Shown: piece after piece, positions 63 through 11,374 of the stretch
Layout: every line of letters starts with the position of its first letter
Numbering within the stretch: position 1 is the first letter of the stretch
DNA from: a virus
DNA length: 11,597 nucleotides
Reading direction: 5' to 3' (one strand)
UHGV virus genome: UHGV-0331195
Notes under the pieces: model-generated
The model's input: the letters and a program-made list of their open reading frames with translations, nothing else
The model's database searches: none
Told to the model about the DNA's origin: nothing
Program-made: the position numbers and the translations under genes

Positions 63-139
63 CGGCACGTAGCGCAGCCTGGTAGCGCACCGTCATGGGG
101 TGTCGGGGGTCGGAGGTTCAAATCCTCTCGTGCCGACCA
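63..139 (+). tRNA. proL: tRNA-Pro, anticodon GGG
   Basis: 77-nt cloverleaf: acceptor stem CGGCACG/CGTGCCG, D-arm GCGC-AGCCTGGTA-GCGC, anticodon loop ATGGGGT (GGG), T-arm GGAGG-TTCAAAT-CCTCT, 3' CCA encoded. Matches my recollection of enterobacterial proL. Confidence 0.9.
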
Positions 140-240: not shown

Positions 241-261
241 ATAAGCTATCAGCCGGATTTT

Positions 262-316
262 TTAGTTATACGTTTAGTTATACGGGCTGGCGTATAACTA
301 AAGCCGTATAACTAAA
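262..316. repeat. Integrase arm-type binding sites: TTAGTTATACG x2 direct (262-272, 274-284) and CGTATAACTAA x2 inverted (291-301, 306-316)
   Basis: Four copies of an 11-mer in a direct/inverted arrangement between the att core and int; the same 11-mer recurs twice at 11291-11313 near the other end. Confidence 0.6.
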
Positions 317-347
317 ACCCTGTTTTTTCGTGTGGAATCATAGACAT

Positions 348-1589
348 ATGGCGAGAAAAACACACCCATTAACCACAGTGCAGATCAAAGCAGCCAGACC
401 AGCGCAAAAGGAGTACACCCTGCAGGACGGCGGAGGGCTTTTTCTCCTGGTCAAACCGTCTGGATCAAAACTCTGGAGATTTTCCTACTACCGACCATCG
501 GACAAAAAAAGAATATTGCTGAGTTTTGGATCGCTTGAAGATGTTTCCCTGGCTGATGCCAGAAAACGCCGTAGCGAGTACAGGACGTTAATCAGTGCCG
601 GAACTGACCCGCAGGACCACGAGAGGCAAAAAAGAGAGACAGAGGCCCGAAGACAAGGGAACACGTTCGAAAATGTGGCGGCGGCATGGTACCAGGTGAA
701 AATCAGCCAGAATCTGGCCCCCAACACGATTAAAGACATCTGGCGTTCGCTGGATAAATATGTATTCCCGTTCATCGGCAACACGCCAATAGATACCCTC
801 ACCGCCCGAAGGTTCGTTGAAGTGCTTACCCCCATCAAGGAGCGCGGCAACCTGGAAACACTCAAGCGGGTTTTACAGCGCGTTAATGAGGTAATGGATT
901 ACGCCGCCAACAGTGGGCTGATTGATGCCAATCCGGCTATGAATGTGCGTAAGGCGTTTCCCTCACCTGTAAAAAAACATATGCCAACAATCCGCCCCGA
1001 ACAGCTGCCGGAGCTTATGCAGGCTTTATCAGTATCGGCAACAGAACGGCAGACCAGATTACTGATTGAATGGCAGTTACTGACCGTAACCCGTCCCGCC
1101 GAAGCGTCATCAACGCGGTGGGATGAAATCAACCTGGACGCGAAGCAATGGACGATACCTGCCGGACGCATGAAGATGCGCAGGGATCACGTTATCCCGC
1201 TTTCCGGTCAGGCTATGGCGGTGCTGGAGGCCATGAAACCAATCAGCCACCACCGCAATTACGTTTTCCCAAGTCTGAAAGACCCACAGCAGCCGATGAA
1301 CAGCCAGACAGCTAACGCAGCATTGCGGCGTATGGGATTCGCTGGCGTGCTGGTGTCTCATGGATTACGCGCCATATTCAGCACAGCAGCGAACGAGGAA
1401 GGATTCGAGCCGGACGTAATAGAGGCGGCACTTGCCCACGTCGACACCAACGAAGTTAGACGGGCATACAACCGGAGCAACTATATAGAAAAACGCATCG
1501 TGCTGATGCGCTGGTGGGGCGAATTTGTCGAGGCTGCGGCGACGGGCGTAACCCTCGCCAGTGGTAAAAGGGGTATCCGAGCCGTGTAG
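348..1589 (+). CDS. int: Tyrosine-type site-specific integrase, P4/CP4-57 family
   Basis: ORF 330-1589; start chosen at ATG 348 (MARKTHPLT...). N-terminus (PLTTVQIKAARP...YTLQDGGGLFLLVKPSGSKLWRFSYY) matches the arm-binding domain signature I recall for P4-type integrases; C-terminus has HGLR and RAYNRSNY catalytic-region motifs. Adjacent to a tRNA. Confidence 0.85.
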   Translation: MARKTHPLTTVQIKAARPAQKEYTLQDGGGLFLLVKPSGSKLWRFSYYRPSDKKRILLSFGSLEDVSLADARKRRSEYRTLISAGTDPQDHERQKRETEARRQGNTFENVAAAWYQVKISQNLAPNTIKDIWRSLDKYVFPFIGNTPIDTLTARRFVEVLTPIKERGNLETLKRVLQRVNEVMDYAANSGLIDANPAMNVRKAFPSPVKKHMPTIRPEQLPELMQALSVSATERQTRLLIEWQLLTVTRPAEASSTRWDEINLDAKQWTIPAGRMKMRRDHVIPLSGQAMAVLEAMKPISHHRNYVFPSLKDPQQPMNSQTANAALRRMGFAGVLVSHGLRAIFSTAANEEGFEPDVIEAALAHVDTNEVRRAYNRSNYIEKRIVLMRWWGEFVEAAATGVTLASGKRGIRAV

Positions 1590-2629: not shown

Positions 2630-2671
2630 AGCAATGCGCCGTAATACCTCACACCACGGCGCTGATAGTGA

Positions 2672-2851
2672 TTATTCTGATTCTTTGGCCTTGCGGCGCT
2701 GGCGGCGTTTGATCTCGCCTTCAAGTGCCGAAACGATAAATTGCCCTGTACTTTCGCCATCTTCCTTTAAATTTTCTACAGCATCAGCTATTGCGTGTGG
2801 TACTCGAGCCTCAAGCTTTTTGGATTTTGCATTAACTGCTTTTGTTGCCAT
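2672..2851 (-). CDS. Ribbon-helix-helix (Arc/CopG/MetJ-type) DNA-binding protein, candidate island repressor
   Basis: 59 aa from ATG 2851 with RBS GAGGAAA 7 nt upstream on the minus strand. MATKAVNAKSKKLEARVPHAIADAVENLKEDGESTGQFIVSALEGEI matches the RHH beta-strand plus two-helix pattern. Divergent from the replication operon, with operator repeats between. Confidence 0.65.
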   Translation of the reverse strand: MATKAVNAKSKKLEARVPHAIADAVENLKEDGESTGQFIVSALEGEIKRRQRRKAKESE

Positions 2852-2872
2852 ATCTGATTTCCTCGTTATTAG

Positions 2873-2952
2873 GTGGCTGACAGTATACACACAAGAAAAC
2901 GGAAAAACACTATTGACGTGGCTGACACCCGTTACTAATATAGTGGCTGACA
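2873..2952. promoter_or_regulatory. Divergent promoter/operator: three direct GTGGCTGACA repeats (2873-2882, 2918-2927, 2943-2952) over a rightward promoter TTGACG (2913-2918), 17 nt, TAATAT (2936-2941)
   Basis: Three exact 10-mers within 80 bp; the middle copy lies in the spacer of a near-consensus sigma70 promoter facing the Icd-like/primase operon. A possible leftward promoter (TTGTGT...TAATAA on the minus strand) overlaps the first repeat. Confidence 0.55.
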
Positions 2953-3045
2953 CCTTTATTAAGGTAATCGATGAAAAGACAAAGCCCCGCAAGTGTCGTT
3001 ACCACTCGCAGGGCTTCTAACCAACAACGTAAACTAGGAGCCGTT

Positions 3046-3603
3046 ATGGTTGCTGTAAATCATATACCACACCTTGTACACACACAAACGGCCTTTGTGT
3101 GGCGTTTTCTGGCCCTGAATATCGGAGAAAAAAACCGCTTGATCGCCACCAGCAAAAATGGCTATGATTCCCGCGCACCTCATAAAACGGGTGTCGGGAT
3201 TAGCCTCCTGAAAACAACTGAAGCGCACAGCACGCGCCCCGCGTGTTTTTTTGTGCCGCATAGTCACACCTTATCAATGGTGGGCTGTACGGGGGCGGAG
3301 CAATCCGCGCCGGTTTCTTCAGTGTCCGGTAAGGCTAACCCTGTACAGTCCGCCACCAGCGAAATTAGCCTTTTGCGTGGCGGTTATCTTAACCACACTG
3401 AGGAGGCTGCCAACATGGCTACTATCCCTACCCTTGTACATTCTCAAACCGCATTTATCTGGCGCTTTATCATCTTTGGCGCGTCAGAATCTCAAATCAT
3501 CCACGTAACCGCCTGGACGGAACGCGAAGCGCGTAGCCGTTGCCCGTCCGGTTGTATTGCGGTATTCGCCGCCCGTATTCGTCAGGGGGTGTGCCATGCC
3601 TGA
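3046..3603 (+). CDS. Icd-like (host cell-division inhibitor family) ORF with in-frame tandem duplication; start uncertain (2971, 3046 or 3415)
   Basis: Single frame 2971-3603 with no stop. AGGAG RBS before ATG 3046. N-terminal motif LVHTQTAFVWRF recurs as LVHSQTAFIWRF at the second copy; degenerate TEAHSTRPAC versus TEREARSRCP. Confidence 0.4.
   Translation: MVAVNHIPHLVHTQTAFVWRFLALNIGEKNRLIATSKNGYDSRAPHKTGVGISLLKTTEAHSTRPACFFVPHSHTLSMVGCTGAEQSAPVSSVSGKANPVQSATSEISLLRGGYLNHTEEAANMATIPTLVHSQTAFIWRFIIFGASESQIIHVTAWTEREARSRCPSGCIAVFAARIRQGVCHA
3415..3603 (+). CDS. Icd-like protein, second and better conserved copy, 62 aa
   Basis: Strong SD GAGGAGG (3400-3406) before ATG 3415. MATIPTLVHSQTAFIWRFIIFGAS...TEREARSRCP...FAARIRQGVCHA fits my recollection of Icd-like small proteins in P4-like/PICI elements. 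Confidence 0.5.
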   Translation: MATIPTLVHSQTAFIWRFIIFGASESQIIHVTAWTEREARSRCPSGCIAVFAARIRQGVCHA

Positions 3604-3916
3604 TATGTCAAATTACCAGTACCTGATTAATCCGCATTTTAACTGTGAGCATGATATTGCTAAAAAAGTTTATTCCGCTGCGGATGGGGCTACTGACAAT
3701 ATATCAATGGGTGTTGCGTCAATTGGTAGCCTGATGTGGCATGCGTCAGAAAATAAGGAATATGACGAAAATACCATGCGCATTGATATGGGTAATATCG
3801 GTTTGTTACTGGCAATGCTTGGACATTTTGATATTTCGTTACGGTGCACCATTGAAAATGCCACAGATGCATTAAATGCTATAAAGAAAGCGAATACTGA
3901 TTCAAATCGGGGATAA
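3596..3916 (+). CDS. Hypothetical protein, 106 aa
   Basis: ATG 3596 overlaps the preceding stop (ATGCCTGA), RBS AGGGGG 6 nt upstream. No family recognised. Confidence 0.5.
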   Translation: MPDMSNYQYLINPHFNCEHDIAKKVYSAADGATDNISMGVASIGSLMWHASENKEYDENTMRIDMGNIGLLLAMLGHFDISLRCTIENATDALNAIKKANTDSNRG

Positions 3917-4222: not shown

Positions 4223-5967
4223 AACTGGCACCGAACGTAAAAAAACAGCCACGCGGAATAAAACACAAAGACACAGAGGTAATTATCTTTGCGGGTAGTG
4301 ATGCCTGGTCACACGCGGAACAATGGCAGGAGCAGGATGGCCCCGCATCCGGCGATAATGTGCCGCCTGTGTGGCTTGGGCCAAATCAGCTTGCCGAACT
4401 TGATGCACTGAAAATTGTTCCGGATGGAAAAAAACGCGTAAGGCTGTACCAGGCCGGAGAACTGGATTTGGTGGAGACCAAAAAGATTGGTCAGAAGCTG
4501 GCGGCGGCAGATATTCAGGACGCAAATTTTTACCCCGAAGGAATGCACGTCCAGAAGTGTGAAAACTGGCGGCGCTATCTGAATGCTGAGCGTGAAAATA
4601 TTGCCGCAGGGCTTACCATGCCGGAGCAGAAAAATACGCAACTGGCACAAATGGCAGACAGTGAGCGCGCGCAGCTGCTTGCCGAGCGCTTTGATGGCGT
4701 TTGTGTACATCCGGAAAGTGAAATCGTTCACGTATGGCGCGGCGGGGTATGGTGTCCGATCAGCACAATGGAGCTGAGCCGCGAAATGGTGGCGATCTAT
4801 TCAGAGCACAGGGCCACTTTCAGCAAACGCGTGATCAATAACGCCGTTGAAGCGTTAAAAGTTATTGCCGAACCAATGGGGGAGCCGTCCGGCGATTTGC
4901 TGCCGTTCGCCAATGGTGCGCTTGACCTGAAAACGGGGGAATTTTCCCCGCACACGCCGGAGAACTGGATCACCACGCACAACGGCATTGAGTACACGCC
5001 ACCAGCACCTGGGGAGAACATCCGCGATAACGCGCCAAACTTTCATAAATGGCTTGATCACGCAGCCGGAAAAGACCAGCGCAAGATGATGCGTATATGT
5101 GCCGCGCTGTACATGATTATGGCGAACCGGTACGACTGGCAGATGTTTATTGAGGCCACCGGAGACGGCGGGAGCGGTAAAAGTACATTCACACACATCG
5201 CCAGCCTTCTGGCAGGGAAACAGAACACGGTAAGCGCTGAAATGACATCGCTTGATGATGCTGGTGGACGTGCGCAGGTTGTCGGGAGTCGTCTTATCGT
5301 CCTGGCTGACCAGACGAAATATACAGGCGAAGGAACGGGCATCAAGAAAATCACGGGCGGCGACCCCGTGGAAATTAACCCGAAATACGAAAAGCGTTTC
5401 ACGGCTGTAATCAGGGCGGTGGTGCTGGCGACCAACAATAACCCGATGATATTCACCGAACGGGCCGGAGGTGTGGCACGTCGTCGCGTGATTTTCCGCT
5501 TCGACAATATCGTCAGTGAGGCCGAAAAAGACAGGGAGCTACCGGAAAAGATTGCGGCTGAAATCCCTGTCATTATCCGCCGATTGCTGGCGAACTTTAC
5601 CGACCCTGAGAAGGCACGGGCTTTACTACTGGAACAGCGTGACGGTGATGAAGCACTGGCAATAAAGCAACAGACGGATCCGGTTATTGAGTTTTGCCAG
5701 TTCCTGAATTTTCTGGAGGAAGCGCGCGGCCTGATGATGGGTGGCGGTGGCGATTCAGTGAAGTACACGACCAGAAACAGCCTTTACCGCGTCTATCTGG
5801 CGTTTATGGCATACGCAGGCAGGAGCAAACCGCTAAACGTAAATGACTTTGGCAAGGCTATGAAGCCAGCCGCGAAAGTTTACGGACATGAATATATTAC
5901 GCGGAAAGTTAAGGGAGTAACGCAGACTAACGCAATAACAACAGACGATTGCGACGCGTTTTTATAA
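4219..5967 (+). CDS. Replication protein: P4-alpha-like primase / SF3 helicase
   Basis: 582 aa; Walker A GDGGSGKST (aa 315-323, nt 5161-5187) and Walker B-like RLIVLAD, consistent with the phage/plasmid primase P4-family C-terminal domain. Followed by an iteron origin. Confidence 0.75.
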   Translation: MKLAPNVKKQPRGIKHKDTEVIIFAGSDAWSHAEQWQEQDGPASGDNVPPVWLGPNQLAELDALKIVPDGKKRVRLYQAGELDLVETKKIGQKLAAADIQDANFYPEGMHVQKCENWRRYLNAERENIAAGLTMPEQKNTQLAQMADSERAQLLAERFDGVCVHPESEIVHVWRGGVWCPISTMELSREMVAIYSEHRATFSKRVINNAVEALKVIAEPMGEPSGDLLPFANGALDLKTGEFSPHTPENWITTHNGIEYTPPAPGENIRDNAPNFHKWLDHAAGKDQRKMMRICAALYMIMANRYDWQMFIEATGDGGSGKSTFTHIASLLAGKQNTVSAEMTSLDDAGGRAQVVGSRLIVLADQTKYTGEGTGIKKITGGDPVEINPKYEKRFTAVIRAVVLATNNNPMIFTERAGGVARRRVIFRFDNIVSEAEKDRELPEKIAAEIPVIIRRLLANFTDPEKARALLLEQRDGDEALAIKQQTDPVIEFCQFLNFLEEARGLMMGGGGDSVKYTTRNSLYRVYLAFMAYAGRSKPLNVNDFGKAMKPAAKVYGHEYITRKVKGVTQTNAITTDDCDAFL

Positions 5968-6787: not shown

Positions 6788-6809
6788 GCCGGAGTAATCC
6801 GGCTTTTTT
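6788..6809 (+). terminator. Rho-independent terminator GCCGGAGtaaTCCGGC then T6
   Basis: Hairpin plus TTTTTT. Nearly identical to the terminator at 9064-9086. Confidence 0.65.
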
Positions 6810-7021: not shown

Positions 7022-7228
7022 ATGGCTGAAGAGAAAAAAGGCGGTGTTTCGGTGTACATAAGCCCCGACATCGTGAAGGCGCTCAAGGAACGCCACCAGC
7101 AGAACGTAAAAGCAGGCATTGCGGCAGGACTTGATCCGCTGGCGATGGTTGAGCCGTCAACAGGCTGGCAGGTACGCGCCTATTTACGCGCGGCGCTGGG
7201 TATGAATCAGGTTCACGGGGGTGAATAA
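7022..7228 (+). CDS. Small hypothetical protein, first gene of head operon
   Basis: 68 aa, RBS AAGAGGAA, stop overlaps the capsid gene start (TAATG). No similarity to lambda gpW, which has the same length, that I can see. Confidence 0.5.
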   Translation: MAEEKKGGVSVYISPDIVKALKERHQQNVKAGIAAGLDPLAMVEPSTGWQVRAYLRAALGMNQVHGGE

Positions 7229-8283
7229 TGACAGTAAAAGCAATAGCACTTAACACTAACCAGCTTTTTGCGTACCTGAATCGCGAGGATATTGCGGAAT
7301 TTAAATTCAGTCCGCTGTTTACCGCGCTGTTTTTCCCGAACGTGGCGACATTCAACACACAGGACATCATGTTAGATAACCTGGATATTGAAGAAGTCAC
7401 TATGTCGGCGTTTTGTTCGCCTATGGTGGGTAGCCAGGTTCAGCGCGATAAAGGGTACGAAACAAGCATTATTCGCCCTGGCTACACGAAGCCAAAACAC
7501 GAAATCGATCCATTAAAAACAATAATGCGCATGGCTGGAGAAGATCCAGCACAGCTTAACGACCCTACCTACCGCCGTATGCGCCTGATTACTGGCAACA
7601 TGCGCCGCCAGATAAACGCCATTAAAGCGCGCGTGGAATGGCTGGCGGTAAATGCGGTAACGACCGGAAAAAACATCATTGAGGGCGAAGGCATAGAGCG
7701 CTATGAAATCGACTGGAAGATACCGGAAAAAAACATCATAGAGCAGGCCGACGGTAAAAAATGGTCAGAGCAGGACAAAGACATACACGACCCAATCTAT
7801 GACATTGAGCTATACGCAGATCAGGCAGGTTGCCCCGCAAACGTCATGATTATGGGCGTTGATGTATGGCGCATGTTACGCAGCTTTAAAAAATTCCGTG
7901 AACTGTACGATCTCTCCCGTGGTTCAGAATCCGCCGCAGAGCTGGCATGTAAAAACCTGGGCGAAGTGGTGAGCTTTAAAGGCTATCTTGGTGATCTGGC
8001 CCTTATCGTCTATTCCGGCAAATACACTGACAGCGACGGCACAGAAAAATATTTCCTTGAGCCTGATTTGCTGGTCCTGGGCAACACCAACAATAAAGGG
8101 CTGGTGGCCTATGGTGCGATTATGGAACAGGAAGCGGTAAGAACGGGCGCAACGCAAAACATGTTTTACCCGAAAAACTGGATTGAGGACGGCGATCCGG
8201 CGATTGAGTACGTGCAGACGCACAGCGCACCGCAGCCGGTTCCGGCAGATATTCGCAAATTTGTTACCGTCAAAATTGGTTAA
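7228..8283 (+). CDS. Major capsid protein, phage lambda gpE family (divergent)
   Basis: 351 aa. Shares with recalled lambda gpE: FKF(S/D)PLF...LFF, (T/R)PGY(V/T)KPKHE, EDP..L.DP.YRR.R.I..NMR, WS..DK...DP..DIE.YA, RSFK, RGS.S, LG..VS(F/Y)KG..GD.A.(I/V)VYSG.Y, LVLGNT...GL..YG, .YPKNW...GDPA.E, SAP. Estimated 35-45% identity. Confidence 0.85.
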   Translation: MTVKAIALNTNQLFAYLNREDIAEFKFSPLFTALFFPNVATFNTQDIMLDNLDIEEVTMSAFCSPMVGSQVQRDKGYETSIIRPGYTKPKHEIDPLKTIMRMAGEDPAQLNDPTYRRMRLITGNMRRQINAIKARVEWLAVNAVTTGKNIIEGEGIERYEIDWKIPEKNIIEQADGKKWSEQDKDIHDPIYDIELYADQAGCPANVMIMGVDVWRMLRSFKKFRELYDLSRGSESAAELACKNLGEVVSFKGYLGDLALIVYSGKYTDSDGTEKYFLEPDLLVLGNTNNKGLVAYGAIMEQEAVRTGATQNMFYPKNWIEDGDPAIEYVQTHSAPQPVPADIRKFVTVKIG

Positions 8284-8295
8284 CGGGGGGATTCT

Positions 8296-8631
8296 ATGGA
8301 CACTCCATACATTGAGTTATTTGCAGGCAGTCAGCAGGTATCCACGACGCTGGTACATTTTGCCGCTGATGCTGGCGTTATTCAGGAATTTACCCCGCTG
8401 ATGCTGGCGGACAATGGCGAGTTTAAGCCGTGGGATGGTCAGGAATCTGGCAAGGCTGTTTATCTGACTTCGTACCCCGTGGACACGTCAAAGCAGAAAT
8501 CAGCACAGTGTTACAAGACGGGGATATTTAATATCGCCGCCGTAAACTGGCCTGAGAGCGCCGACACTGACGCGAAAAAATGCGCCGCCTTTGCGGGTTC
8601 TGGCGTATCCGTTCAGCCGCTGGCGCGATAA
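8296..8631 (+). CDS. Head decoration protein, lambda gpD family (divergent)
   Basis: 111 aa; TPLMLADNGEFKPWDG...YKTGIFN...VNWPESADTDAKKCAAFAG...SV parallels recalled gpD (TPLMLD...WDG...YKSGTF...VLWPEA..DETKKRTAFAG...SI). Gene order E then D is the reverse of lambda. Confidence 0.7.
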   Translation: MDTPYIELFAGSQQVSTTLVHFAADAGVIQEFTPLMLADNGEFKPWDGQESGKAVYLTSYPVDTSKQKSAQCYKTGIFNIAAVNWPESADTDAKKCAAFAGSGVSVQPLAR

Positions 8632-8643
8632 GCAGGGGAAACG

Positions 8644-9057
8644 ATGGCAACGAATGAAAGCATCATGGCGCTACCGCTGGCGAGTAAATTTAAAGCAGAA
8701 GCGCGGGCAATGGCTGACAGAGGTTTATCAACCTACGAGGCCGTATATCAACTCAACAAACTGGAAGAACAGGACAAGCCGCGCGCTGATGCGATTATGG
8801 CGCTTCATGAACATAACGACTATCAGCCGCTGTTACGTGCAATGGCAAACGTGCCATGTATTAGCGTCGATAATGCTCGTGAAATCCTGAACATGACCAT
8901 AGAGCAGGAGCGCCCAAAGGTTGCACCAGAGCTTACCGCAGCCTTTGAAAACTTTATGGACATGCACAGCCCGCAAGCCGTATCAGCTGGCATGGCGTAC
9001 GATGGCAGAAACCAGGGCGATGACGGCGACATCGATCGCATACTGAAAACCATCTGA
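8644..9057 (+). CDS. Hypothetical head-module protein, 137 aa, acidic C-terminus
   Basis: RBS GGGGA 5 nt upstream. No convincing similarity to lambda FI/FII/W from memory. Confidence 0.5.
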   Translation: MATNESIMALPLASKFKAEARAMADRGLSTYEAVYQLNKLEEQDKPRADAIMALHEHNDYQPLLRAMANVPCISVDNAREILNMTIEQERPKVAPELTAAFENFMDMHSPQAVSAGMAYDGRNQGDDGDIDRILKTI

Positions 9058-9063
9058 GACAAG

Positions 9064-9086
9064 GCCGGAGAAATCCGGCTTTTTTT
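9064..9086 (+). terminator. Rho-independent terminator GCCGGAGaaaTCCGGC then T7, immediately before cosQ
   Basis: Hairpin plus TTTTTTT; 22 of 23 nt identical to the terminator at 6788-6809. Confidence 0.65.
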
Positions 9087-9088
9087 AC

Positions 9089-9262
9089 GGGTCCTTTCCG
9101 GCATATGGACCCGTTACGGGGCGGCGACCTCGCGGTTTTTCGCTATTTATGAGCCTTTTCAGGGGGGTGGTGGTGGTTTTGTTGTTTGATCTATCTTTAT
9201 GAATGAAAAGGGAAAGATGCAAGCAATACACCAACCTGAAGCAGTAATTAAGTTGGTGTATT
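9089..9262 (+). other. cos site 1 (lambda-type): cosQ-like GGGTCCTTTCCGG (9089-9101), cosN 12-nt cohesive-end sequence GGGCGGCGACCT (9119-9130), divergent cosB region with hairpin AATACACCAAC/GTTGGTGTATT (9225-9262)
   Basis: CGTTACG|GGGCGGCGACCTCGCGG-TTTTCGCTATTTATGA matches my memory of the lambda right-end/left-end junction for about 35 nt, then diverges with no CGTTTCC-type R elements. Sits directly upstream of the Nu1-like gene, as in lambda. Confidence 0.75.
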
Positions 9263-9263
9263 A

Positions 9264-9806
9264 ATGAAATCTCATCTGATGAACAAAAAAAACATGGCGA
9301 AAAGCTGCCGTGTAAGTGCGACAGCGTTCGACAAGTGGGGAGTAACTCCCGTTGAGCGTAAAGGCCGTGAGGCGTTTTATGATGTTGCCAGCGTGATAGA
9401 AAATAGGGTTAACAATGCAATTAGCCAGCTTATAAACGACAAAGGCGAGATTGACGATGATGAACTTTTACGAGTCAGGATCAGATTACTGACAGCACAG
9501 GCAGAGGCGCAGGAACTTAAAAACGATCGCGATCGCGGTGACGTGATTGATACTGAGTTTTGCCTGTACGCGCTTTCAAAGCTGGCGAGTCAGATTTCAT
9601 CAATCATGGACAGCCTCCCGCTTACTATGCAAAGGAGCTTCCCACAGATTACCCCCGCCATGCTGGATAGGCTTAAAAGGGAAGTGGTTAAAGCCTGTAA
9701 TGCCAGTGCCAGAGTTGCCGACAACCTCCCACAGATACTGGCTGATTACTTGAAAGAAACAACCGGAAACGTACCGGAAAAGTTGCTACAGAAGAAAGGC
9801 GAGTAA
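9264..9806 (+). CDS. Terminase small subunit, lambda gpNu1 family; start uncertain (9264, 9279 or 9294)
   Basis: C-terminal two-thirds LLTAQAEAQELKNDRDRGDVIDTEFCLYALSKLASQISSIMDSLPLTMQRSFPQI...LDRLKREVVKACN closely parallels recalled Nu1 (LTRAQADAQELKNARDSAEVVETAFCTFVLSRIAGEIASILDGLPLSVQRRFPEL...FLKRDIIKAMN). N-terminal DNA-binding region is much more divergent. Confidence 0.8.
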   Translation: MKSHLMNKKNMAKSCRVSATAFDKWGVTPVERKGREAFYDVASVIENRVNNAISQLINDKGEIDDDELLRVRIRLLTAQAEAQELKNDRDRGDVIDTEFCLYALSKLASQISSIMDSLPLTMQRSFPQITPAMLDRLKREVVKACNASARVADNLPQILADYLKETTGNVPEKLLQKKGE

Positions 9807-9824
9807 CAGACGCGCAATTATTGA

Positions 9825-10030
9825 ACAAAACTGAGAAACGACATGAAAGCGTCATAAATCGCCATTTTAGATGATTACCGTGTCGTTTCTTTTTATTGTG
9901 TATCTATTTAAAAACAAATAGTTATGTTCGAGAAGTACCGACATGCTTTTTCCAGAAAAATTTTCATAAACAGATAAAAACCGCGAGGTCGCCGCCCCGT
10001 AACGGGCCATAATTCCAGGAAGGACCCGAC
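9825..10030 (-). other. cos site 2, inverted: cosQ-like (9998-10030), cosN GGGCGGCGACCT on minus strand (9986-9997), lambda-like cosB with R-type elements GAAACGACA (9835-9843) / TGTCGTTTC (9882-9890)
   Basis: The reverse complement of 9825-10030 aligns with the recalled lambda left end over about 170 nt (cosN, TTTATGAAAATTTT, CTTCT.G.ACATAACT..TGTTTTTA..TA, AAAAAGAAACGACA, TGTCGTTTC). 31 nt around cosN are identical to cos site 1 in inverted orientation. cosB abuts the terS stop tail-to-tail. Confidence 0.7.
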
Positions 10031-10061
10031 GACACCAGACTATCAGAACGATGGGGGCACA

Positions 10062-10343
10062 ATGACAGAAGCCGAAATACTGGGATTAATCCGCCGCGTT
10101 GCCGGAATCAGCCAGCAGGTTGACGAACAGGCCACGCAGCCGGACAGCGTGACCGCTGAAAATTATGCGCGTGTTGTTGCGGAGGTGATGCGCCGTGATG
10201 GTATAGAACTTAATGGCGTGGATATGCGCAACATACGAACCAGAGTTCTTGAGTTGCTGGCCTACCGTCGCCGCGTGGAGATGTATCGGGAGAAGGAGAA
10301 AATAACGTACCACTGGAAGAAGCCGGAGCGGTTGCGGCGGTAA
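10062..10343 (+). CDS. Hypothetical protein, 93 aa
   Basis: ORF with GGGGG 5 nt upstream of ATG; Arg-rich C-terminus. No family recognised. Confidence 0.45.
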   Translation: MTEAEILGLIRRVAGISQQVDEQATQPDSVTAENYARVVAEVMRRDGIELNGVDMRNIRTRVLELLAYRRRVEMYREKEKITYHWKKPERLRR

Positions 10344-10903
10344 CTGGTTGATATTCCCGACGGACCAAAAATGGGTGGCTACATCCCTCGCTTCTGAGGA
10401 CTGTTAACAAGCTGCCTGAAAGACAGTCACAAACTACGAAATTTTCGCAGTTTAATTAATGATCAGCTTAATCGCTAACCCGCTGATATTTTCGGAAACC
10501 TCAATTTGAGGAAGTCGGCGCGGTAACTCGCTGAACTTTAAGCAAAGCGCAAAATTGCGCTTGCTGAATAATCATTATGATTACGCAGATGATTAAGGAA
10601 TGACCGAAGGCGGAAATTCGCCTGTGGTTAATGGGGGAGTTGCAGATCTGCAACTCGACCATGAAACTACGGAAACTACCCGTAGTTTGGGTAGTAAGAG
10701 TAACACCCAGATTTTGGGGCTTACTCGTGATACCCAAATTTGGGGTATCGGTGGCAACCATAACGACTTTCGTTACGGTTGATGCTTTTACCCCATTGGT
10801 GGAGGCTGGGCGGCCTGCTGTGGGCTTTTCCACCATTGGTGGAAAGGTGCAGATCTGGATCATCATTACGGTGATCAAGGGTATGTAAAACCCACCAGCC
10901 TGA

Positions 10904-11146: not shown

Positions 11147-11290
11147 CAGGCGTAAATCCCGATATGGTGATCCCCATATCGGGGAACATCCACCAGCTTA
11201 AAAACGAATGAGCGAAAAAAATCCAGGTAGAATTATGGAAGTCGCTAGGGCAATCGCCGTTTAAATTGTGTATTTTTTCAGCAAATTATT

Positions 11291-11313
11291 TTAGTTATAC
11301 GTTTGGTTATACG
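11291..11313. repeat. Integrase arm-type sites near attR: TTAGTTATACG (11291-11301) and TTGGTTATACG (11303-11313)
   Basis: Same 11-mer as at 262-284, about 60 bp from the attR core. Confidence 0.55.
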
Positions 11314-11374
11314 GTTTAAAAGTTGAATCGATAATATTGATTAAAATCATACTGTTACACGCTCAATTAAACTA

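Follow-up and report, generated by a model that had tools for sequence, protein, structure and literature searches.

EcCICFT073, the model Gram-negative phage-inducible chromosomal island (PICI), carries two cosN sequences, which Fillol-Salom et al. named cos1 and cos2 and cloned individually (2018, ISME J, PMC6092414). Either site on a plasmid permitted transfer by lambda and phi80; within the island, deletion of cos1 lowered transfer, deletion of cos2 raised it, and the double deletion abolished it (PMC6092414). Efficient Rpp-dependent transfer required cos1 (PMC6092414; PMC6739421), and the response to RppA was limited to the cosB of this site (Fillol-Salom et al. 2019, Mol Cell, PMC6739421). 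Both papers state that no phage cosB was found in either cos, and both left open why certain PICIs possess a pair of differing cos sites; their main texts are silent on orientation, although in a supplementary figure cos2 is printed reverse-complemented relative to the genome (PMC6092414; PMC6739421). The 2018 paper likened EcCICFT073 to SaPIbov4, an island for which two putative cos sites are given (PMC6092414). The detailed analysis of PICI cos sites by Murialdo and Feiss (2022, PMC9026076) leaves the second site unmentioned, and the paper on helper-embedded PICIs refers to shared cos DNA without speaking of a pair of sites. Here, the virus genome UHGV-0331195 was analyzed as a stretch of 11,597 nucleotides (the window), which is an 11-kb PICI of the EcCICFT073 family beside tRNA-Pro. 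Its region 9084-10061 is a packaging-specificity cassette consisting of cos1 on the plus strand, a specificity gene, here a small terminase subunit gene (terS), and cos2 on the minus strand (Table 1).

A small terminase gene between opposed cos sites

In EcCICFT073 (locus L006), the two cosN copies lie at 2559 (+) and 3298 (-), on either side of the 144-aa rppA (c1503, 2660-3094), which occupies the position held by terS in the window. The two-cos architecture is therefore not new: a sequence-only reading of the window had taken it to be undescribed, but the same order of cos1 (+), gene and cos2 (-) was published for EcCICFT073 and deletion-tested in 2018 and 2019 (PMC6092414; PMC6739421). Both islands share the order PerC, 68-aa open reading frame (ORF), E-like capsid, D-like decoration, 137-aa ORF, cos1, specificity gene, cos2 and 93-aa ORF, as well as a convergent cosN pair, conserved cosQ-cosN flanks, and a private cos1 cosB beside the specificity gene. 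They differ in the gene itself, which in the window encodes a 180-aa Nu1 homolog with a conserved C-terminal part, whereas that of EcCICFT073 encodes a 144-aa Rpp pairing with the helper TerS. The cosBs differ as well, that of cos1 being of another type (GGTGGTGGT in the window, its reverse complement ACCACCACC in EcCICFT073) and that of cos2 being lambda/21-like in the window and PhiR12-like in EcCICFT073.

The exact cosN sequence GGGCGGCGACCT occurred exactly twice in the window, once on each strand, with a start-to-start distance of 867 bp; by arithmetic, about 0.001 occurrences of a 12-mer are expected by chance in 2 x 11.6 kb. The two copies sit in an inverted repeat (I1 in the repeat list) with arms of 72 nt at 9088-9159 and 9957-10028 that are 82% complementary, and share an identical 31-nt core, CCCGTTACG-GGGCGGCGACCT-CGCGGTTTTT, at 9110-9140 and 9976-10006. 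These observations agree with the sequence-only reading, which had reported two opposed cosN sites with cosQ-like flanks and 31 identical nucleotides. It had also named an assembly artifact as a possibility; this is dispelled by 490 of 5426 complete E. coli genomes, which carry at least 80% of 9,089-10,030's surroundings, positions 8600-10400.

Table 1 Features of the window and of its packaging-specificity cassette
Feature	Position	Strand	Remarks
tRNA-Pro	63-139		
Integrase gene	330-1589		
Head-gene block upstream of cos1	7228-9057	+	PHROG matches phrog_29, phrog_49, phrog_1999, phrog_53
Lambda E-like major capsid protein	7228-8283	+	Pfam Phage_cap_E, 2.7e-48
Lambda D-like decoration protein	8296-8631	+	Pfam HDPD, 1e-17
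137-aa protein	8644-9057	+	similar to head-maturation protease ORFs in their C-terminal, Nu3-like part; phrog_53 positions 494-567, 7e-10
GC hairpin with T-run (terminator-like) directly before cosQ1	9064-9085	+	direct-repeat family D1; read from sequence, unlisted in a simple terminator scan
cosQ of cos1	9084-9099	+	TTTACGGGTCCTTTCC, 16/16 identical to lambda cosQ; element named cosQ in the supplements of the papers
Invertible/exchangeable cassette	9088-10028	.	bounded by the 72-nt inverted cosQ-cosN arms
cosN of cos1	9119-9130	+	exact GGGCGGCGACCT, equal to lambda bp 1-12
cosB of cos1, island-private T type	9131-9263	+	GKTGGTGK elements
Island terS	9264-9806	+	full-length Nu1 homolog, 180 aa; alternative start M6 or M11
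cos2 module	9808-10061	-	present/absent unit between the terS stop (9804-9806) and the start of the 93-aa ORF (10062)
cosB of cos2, phage type	9808-9985	-	R3 9934-9943 (-), R2 9881-9890 (+, inverted), R1 9834-9843 (-)
cosN of cos2	9986-9997	-	exact GGGCGGCGACCT
cosQ-like element of cos2	10016-10033 (about)	-	TCGTCGGGTCCTTCCTGG; diverged, CGGGTCCTT kept; aligned with lambda, phage 4 and PhiR5_1

The cos2 site was of phage type. Its cosQ and cosN stand in the correct relative order, and the cosQ2 sequence is the same as in the published EcCICFT073 cos2. Its minus strand could be aligned with lambda, CFT073 phage 4 and PhiR5_1 from cosQ as far as the point at which Nu1 begins in the phages. Measured over bp 38-162 (bp 1 being the first base of cosN), the cosB of cos2 was 0.71-0.75 identical to those of the three phages, which are 0.68-0.72 identical among themselves; the shuffle null was 0.578 +/- 0.024, with a maximum of 0.656. 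The R-type elements GAAACGACA and TGTCGTTTC picked out by the sequence-only reading correspond to the R2 and R1 of lambda and do not make up the whole cosB, to which an R3-like TGTCGGTACT also belongs. Counted from cosN, this R3 occupies bp 55-64, R2 (TGTCGTTTCT, inverted) bp 108-117 and R1 (TGTCGTTTCT) bp 155-164; these positions (about bp 55, 110 and 155) and their geometry are those of CFT073 phage 4 and PhiR5_1. In the nomenclature of Feiss, the order is R3 (bp 50-65), I1, R2 (inverted, about bp 108-123) and R1 (about bp 150-165) (PMC9026076). The motif TGTCGKTWCT, derived from these same sites, had exactly three matches in the window, all in cos2, against 0.06 expected. A strict scan for the IHF site of I1 (WATCAANNNNTTR) gave zero matches in cos2 and zero in lambda too, and was thus uninformative. 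The R3 of the window resembles that of phage 4 (14/16; the phage-4/21 kind), and its R2 and R1 have the lambda core. The window cos2 is a complete helper-phage-type cos in inverted orientation, with cosQ, cosN, R3, inverted R2 and R1, and its cleavage by terminase and use in packaging are predicted.

The cos2 of EcCICFT073 also matched phages. Across 179 nt it shared 93% identity with the cos found in PhiR12_1 to PhiR12_5 (L006 3100-3345 against PhiR12_1, L087 2501-2679), which lies directly upstream of the Nu1 and A genes, and three CCGGACAT elements are common to both. As a result, the published description of the PICI cosBs as 'completely divergent' holds only for the phages then compared. 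The same match rules out that the CCGGACAT repeats mark another island-private type. The idea that cos2 always matches the resident helper was unsupported in CFT073, where the phage 4 cosB and EcCICFT073 cos2 had an identity of only 0.62.

In contrast to cos2, the cosB of cos1 bore no phage-type R sequences, and its identity to four phage cosBs (0.58-0.63) was at background, so that the two cosBs do differ, as had been read from the sequence. The flanks of its cosN match lambda from about -35 to +33. Four of the seven window matches to GKTGGTGK fall in this cosB (1.28 expected across the whole window), with elements at 9166-9176 (+, at the R3 position, bp 48-58), 9228-9235 (-) and 9252-9259 (+), an arrangement that mirrors R3, inverted R2 and R1. 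This T-type cosB was conserved in 60 cosB copies. The first two elements co-vary between its subtypes, GGTGGTGG occurring with ACACCAACC and GGTTGTTG with ACAACAACC, and such a joint change is consistent with a single protein reading both sites. Of these elements, the first, GGTGGTGGT (bp 50-58; window 9166-9176), is the reverse complement of ACCACCACC (L006 2613-2621, bp 55-63), which was proposed as R3-PICI in Rpp islands (Murialdo and Feiss 2022, PMC9026076); the two are about equally far from cosN. In the surveyed loci described below, the subtype with GGTTGTTG and ACAACAACC, termed T2, never adjoined a TerS gene; it sat as cos2 of Rpp146 islands (L015, L022, L048, L055, L058, L061, L071, L078) or in gene-less cassettes (the L008-L026 class).

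The gene between the sites had been read as Nu1-like, and profile searches bore this out: its product matched Pfam PF07471 (Phage_Nu1; 3.2e-23, 82.6 bits against a cutoff of 30) and phrog_57 (terminase small subunit; 8e-53 over residues 1-174), and was 36-45% identical to three phage Nu1 proteins. The N-terminal 66 amino acids reached 24-26%, aligning with the winged helix-turn-helix of Nu1 (residues 1-50) with a shortened wing and linker, and residues 67-174 reached 37-53% (53% with PhiR5_1). A PDB sequence search with TerS returned only noise, hitting neither the DNA-binding domain of Nu1 nor the RppC chains. TerS was 18% identical to RppA, exceeded the length of Rpp proteins (139-154 aa) and fell outside the Rpp family. 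The C-terminal half of lambda TerS contains the domain that binds TerL, a role in which its last 40 residues are implicated (PMC9026076); this C-terminal region is present and conserved in the island TerS. On these sequence features, we infer that the island TerS would bind cos1 through a re-targeted DNA-binding domain and recruit the helper TerL directly. Rpp, in contrast, is without the C-terminal region and needs the helper TerS.

Compared with the cos of lambda-family phages, in which R3-I1-R2-R1 are followed by Nu1, the window has an identical cosN, the subsites of cos2 are in phage order and spacing, and terS comes after cos1 just as Nu1 comes after the phage cos. Unlike the phages, which have a single cos, the island has two opposed ones, the phage-type one pointing away from any terS, and the R elements of its cos1 have an unrelated core.

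Modularity and inversion of the cassette

To place the window among its relatives, loci were collected by anchoring on the 137-aa protein, which gave 80 IMG/VR loci; three genome loci and the window were added to them. Among these, 56 cassettes (52 in IMG/VR loci) had two cosN sites, and all 56 were convergent, plus then minus, with no direct pair; the inverted pair that the sequence-only reading proposed to look for in related islands does occur there. Spacings fell into classes of 524-530, 625, 739, 759-760 and 864-868 bp. The cosN of cos2 was within one mismatch in 56/56 and exact in all but four.

Five cosB types emerged when the 150-nt stretches downstream of the cosN sites were clustered: T (core GGTGGTGG, as in window cos1), R (core CACCACCAC, as in EcCICFT073 cos1), phage-like (core GAAACGACA, as in window cos2, with lambda, phage 4 and PhiR5_1 in the cluster), CCGGACAT (with this core, as in EcCICFT073 cos2), and GGATCTGAT (with this core, in the cos2 of other TerS islands). 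In loci with a callable cassette protein, the cos1 cosB tracked the protein without exception, T going with a TerS of 180-184 aa and R with Rpp. The cos2 varied behind each of these. A T-type cos1 with TerS was combined with a lambda-like cos2 in about 14 loci, with a GGATCTGAT cos2 in about 12, and with none or a disrupted one in about 8; an R-type cos1 was combined with Rpp144 and a CCGGACAT cos2 in 12 loci, and with Rpp146 and a T cos2 (subtype T2) in 8. Nine more two-cos cassettes had no intact specificity gene, and one of 625 bp (L073) retained only a truncated 3' part of rpp. The TerS cassette was the commoner type among the surveyed IMG/VR loci. Cos2 types have been swapped between islands. 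Other phage-like cosBs, each consistent within itself, fill the same slot elsewhere. L030 and L036 have a cos2 whose R2 and R1 belong to the phage-4 kind, and the GGATCTGAT-type cos2, read from the sequence, contains three CAGATCC elements that agree with one another and are arranged in the same way.

The module boundaries were sharp. Four islands (L007, L012, L020, L068) were without exactly 9808-10061, and the terS stop is at 9804-9806, which agrees with the claim that cos2 ends precisely at this stop; in L028, a partial deletion left cosQ2 and half of cosN. The protein-less cassettes of 524-530 nt were found in both orientations (4 versus 5 loci), and L008 compared with L009/L016 (3446-4043) had collinear flanks at 96-97% identity around a middle of 600 nt that was inverted and 98% identical. 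A synthetic query for the inverted junction had full-length matches in two complete E. coli genomes, PM4-5 and LZHX12; in PM4-5 (L088 2608-3547), the whole of 9088-10028 was inverted between collinear flanks, with terS on the other strand. A side effect of the opposed repeats is that the cassette becomes a hotspot of inversion and of exchange of modules.

Other rearranged loci were also found. E. coli GF60 (L089 2480-3402) has a single plus-strand cos, whose cosN GGGCGTCGACCT has one mismatch and is followed by a PhiR5_1-like cosB, and a chimeric TerS of 194 aa, phage-type in the N-terminal half and island-type in the C-terminal one; its 137-aa gene is for the most part deleted. In L049, L080 and L083 (around 3470-3800), one cos with a different cosN (GGGCGGGAGCGG...) and a PhiR12-type cosB is followed by the first ~25 codons of a PhiR12-type Nu1 (VATQTEVARHLSLTDRQLRRLQKL) and then by unrelated sequence.

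Two proposed packaging routes and the alternatives

We consider it fairly probable that the two sites serve two routes, cos1 being a private site for the island TerS with the helper TerL, and cos2 a captured helper site for the unmodified helper terminase in the opposite direction. The sequence-only reading had offered two specificities as one of several options, and it is the one best supported, by the covariation of the cos1 cosB with the protein and by the phage-type R set in cos2. In such a scheme, the GKTGGTGK elements of cos1 would be read by a putative winged-helix domain at the diverged N terminus of the island TerS, whose C-terminal two-thirds would recruit the helper TerL, with packaging running rightward from cos1. 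The unmodified helper TerS-TerL would use the captured cos2 and package the island leftward. In lambda, cosB sets the polarity of initiation, and termination requires a cosQ that lies upstream of cosN as the motor travels. Because of this last requirement, a motor begun at one site would ignore the opposed one and come to a stop only where its own site next recurs in the concatemer. The opposed routes would then neither truncate each other nor delete terS, unlike two direct sites, and the island would have two independent ways into helper capsids. Going by the statements of the papers, it appears to combine the strategies of SaPI1 and SaPIbov1, whose own TerS redirects the helper TerL to a satellite-specific site, and of SaPIbov5, which has a helper cos; the SaPI proteins and hosts are unrelated, and SaPI TerS acts on pac (headful) packaging.

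Several points weigh against two productive routes. In the 2018 experiments, the two E. coli PICIs that encode TerS, catalogued for strains IHE3034 and 18098, gave no transfer after mitomycin C induction (PMC6092414); likened by description only, they are probably of the same type as the window. Deletion of the EcCICFT073 cos2 increased transfer by lambda and phi80 (PMC6092414), so that cos2 is not beneficial with these helpers. About eight TerS-type islands are without an intact cos2, and the eight Rpp146 islands have an island-type (T2) rather than a phage-type cosB at this site. No sequenced phage was found with a cosB closely matching that of window cos2, the best being PhiR5_1 with 83% over 150 nt, and the mixture of an R3 of one kind with R2 and R1 of another means that, from the sequence, the cognate TerS cannot be named. 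The assumed dependence of termination on orientation is itself carried over from established lambda genetics.

An alternative is that cos2 is mainly a decoy, which attracts and consumes helper terminase on the highly replicated island DNA and so lowers helper packaging, island transfer being incidental. This fits cos2 being a complete phage-type site, the gain in transfer on deletion of the EcCICFT073 cos2, by which use of cos2 costs the island (PMC6092414), and the known interference of the family with helper packaging via Rpp (PMC6739421). However, interference would already be supplied by TerS competing for TerL or by Rpp sequestering TerS, cos2 is dispensable in about eight islands, and terminase acting at cos2 would package island DNA anyway, which makes a decoy hardly separable from a second route. 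We regard the decoy as unlikely.

Equally, cos2 could be a scar, left by exchanges with helpers (including the arrival of terS or rpp) at cos sites, which are hotspots of double-strand breakage and recombination, and persisting since an inverted copy is harmless and a direct copy would be lost. The extreme mosaicism of the cassettes, with at least five cosB types in many combinations, the presence or absence of cos2, its partial deletion in L028, the inversion isomers and the chimeric TerS of L089 all speak for such exchanges. A mere remnant accords poorly, however, with a cos2 cosN kept within one mismatch in every two-cos cassette and with the full, consistent set of R3, inverted R2 and R1 kept by each cos2 type. 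Several different phage cosBs are fixed at the same slot, suggesting repeated selection, and the EcCICFT073 cos2 works as a cloned site and sustains what transfer is left once cos1 is deleted (PMC6092414). The scar is improbable as well.

The least likely account, to which we give very little credence, is an invertible switch in which the opposed repeats let the cassette flip and toggle terS expression and cosB direction as a phase-variable packaging specificity: both orientations do occur naturally in protein-less cassettes (4 versus 5), PM4-5 has the entire TerS cassette turned round and LZHX12 likewise matches the inverted junction, but the inverted TerS cassette was found in only 2 complete genomes against 490 with the standard one, no invertase gene lies nearby, and flips are common only with no gene inside, which fits a neutral inversion that is purged when terS turns antisense.

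Beyond the two routes by island and helper terminase, we tentatively suggest, as a possibility rated well below an even chance, that the opposed cosQ-cosN repeats act as a socket into which any cosB, with or without a cognate gene, may be swapped from helpers or other islands, and that terminase itself may flip the cassette. Homologous recombination would be unnecessary for such a flip, because cutting at both cosN sites would free a fragment with the same cohesive end twice, able to re-anneal either way. If this is true, the island would hold one private and one borrowed packaging address, the latter even that of other satellites (the T2 cos2 of Rpp146 islands), and the flip would be a terminase-driven DNA inversion.

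The island and the meaning of its cassette

Adjoining tRNA-Pro and yejM, the genome of E. coli DETEC-S792 has a region with 99.9% identity to the window. Its assignment to the EcCICFT073 family rests on the att-site integrase, an AlpA-type regulator, a primase-replicase, the conserved late block and the cos-flanked specificity gene; gene order and annotation agree with L001, L004 and L006. Other products of the window include an integrase, a helix-turn-helix regulator, a primase, PerC, TerS and a 93-aa protein (10062-10343). The late block, 93-96% identical in the relatives from Nissle and CFT073, adjoins phoQ in Nissle 1917 and CFT073. A 37-nt direct repeat at 249-285 (+) and 11278-11314 (84% identical, spacing 11029) suggests candidate att cores, 249-285 being the putative attL, and an island unit of about 11.03 kb. 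Four such units amount to 44.1 kb, near the 48.5-kb genome of lambda, which fits the published idea of several island units per helper head.

With the head-gene block upstream of cos1, the island may make part of its own shell. EcCICFT073 also encodes E-like capsid, D-like decoration and 137-aa proteins (L006 669-2497); according to the 2018 paper, it is without capsid morphogenesis genes (PMC6092414). The hairpin with T-run before cosQ1, GCCGGAG(T/A)AATCCGGCTTTTTT, recurs at 6788-6809 (after PerC), with a weaker copy at 1930-1951, and looks like a reused intrinsic terminator. The simple terminator scan also scored cosN with its T-run on both strands (9117-9142 (+) and 9999-9974 (-)), which was taken as a coincidence of consensus. 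A cosN-like 12-mer with one mismatch, GGGCGGCGACCC, lies within the primase gene (5355-5366) without cosQ or cosB context, and plus-strand matches with one mismatch also occur in the primase genes of L001 (7256) and L004 (6866); these are probably due to chance.

Since the two-cos layout had already been published, what is new is the full small-terminase gene between the sites and the identity of cos2 as a complete inverted helper-type cos. Going beyond the earlier papers, cos2 is a bona fide helper-type site both in the window and in the model island EcCICFT073. The common sister type, in which a full-length TerS replaces Rpp, predicts direct recruitment of TerL rather than an Rpp-TerS heterodimer, and the cassette is a hotspot, both modular and invertible, in which the protein and the cos1 cosB are strictly linked. 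The analysis offers a plausible answer to the open question of the two cos sites, and no new kind of system. These points matter for the range of helpers open to islands that carry virulence and defence genes between cells, and for how delivery vehicles based on PICIs are designed.

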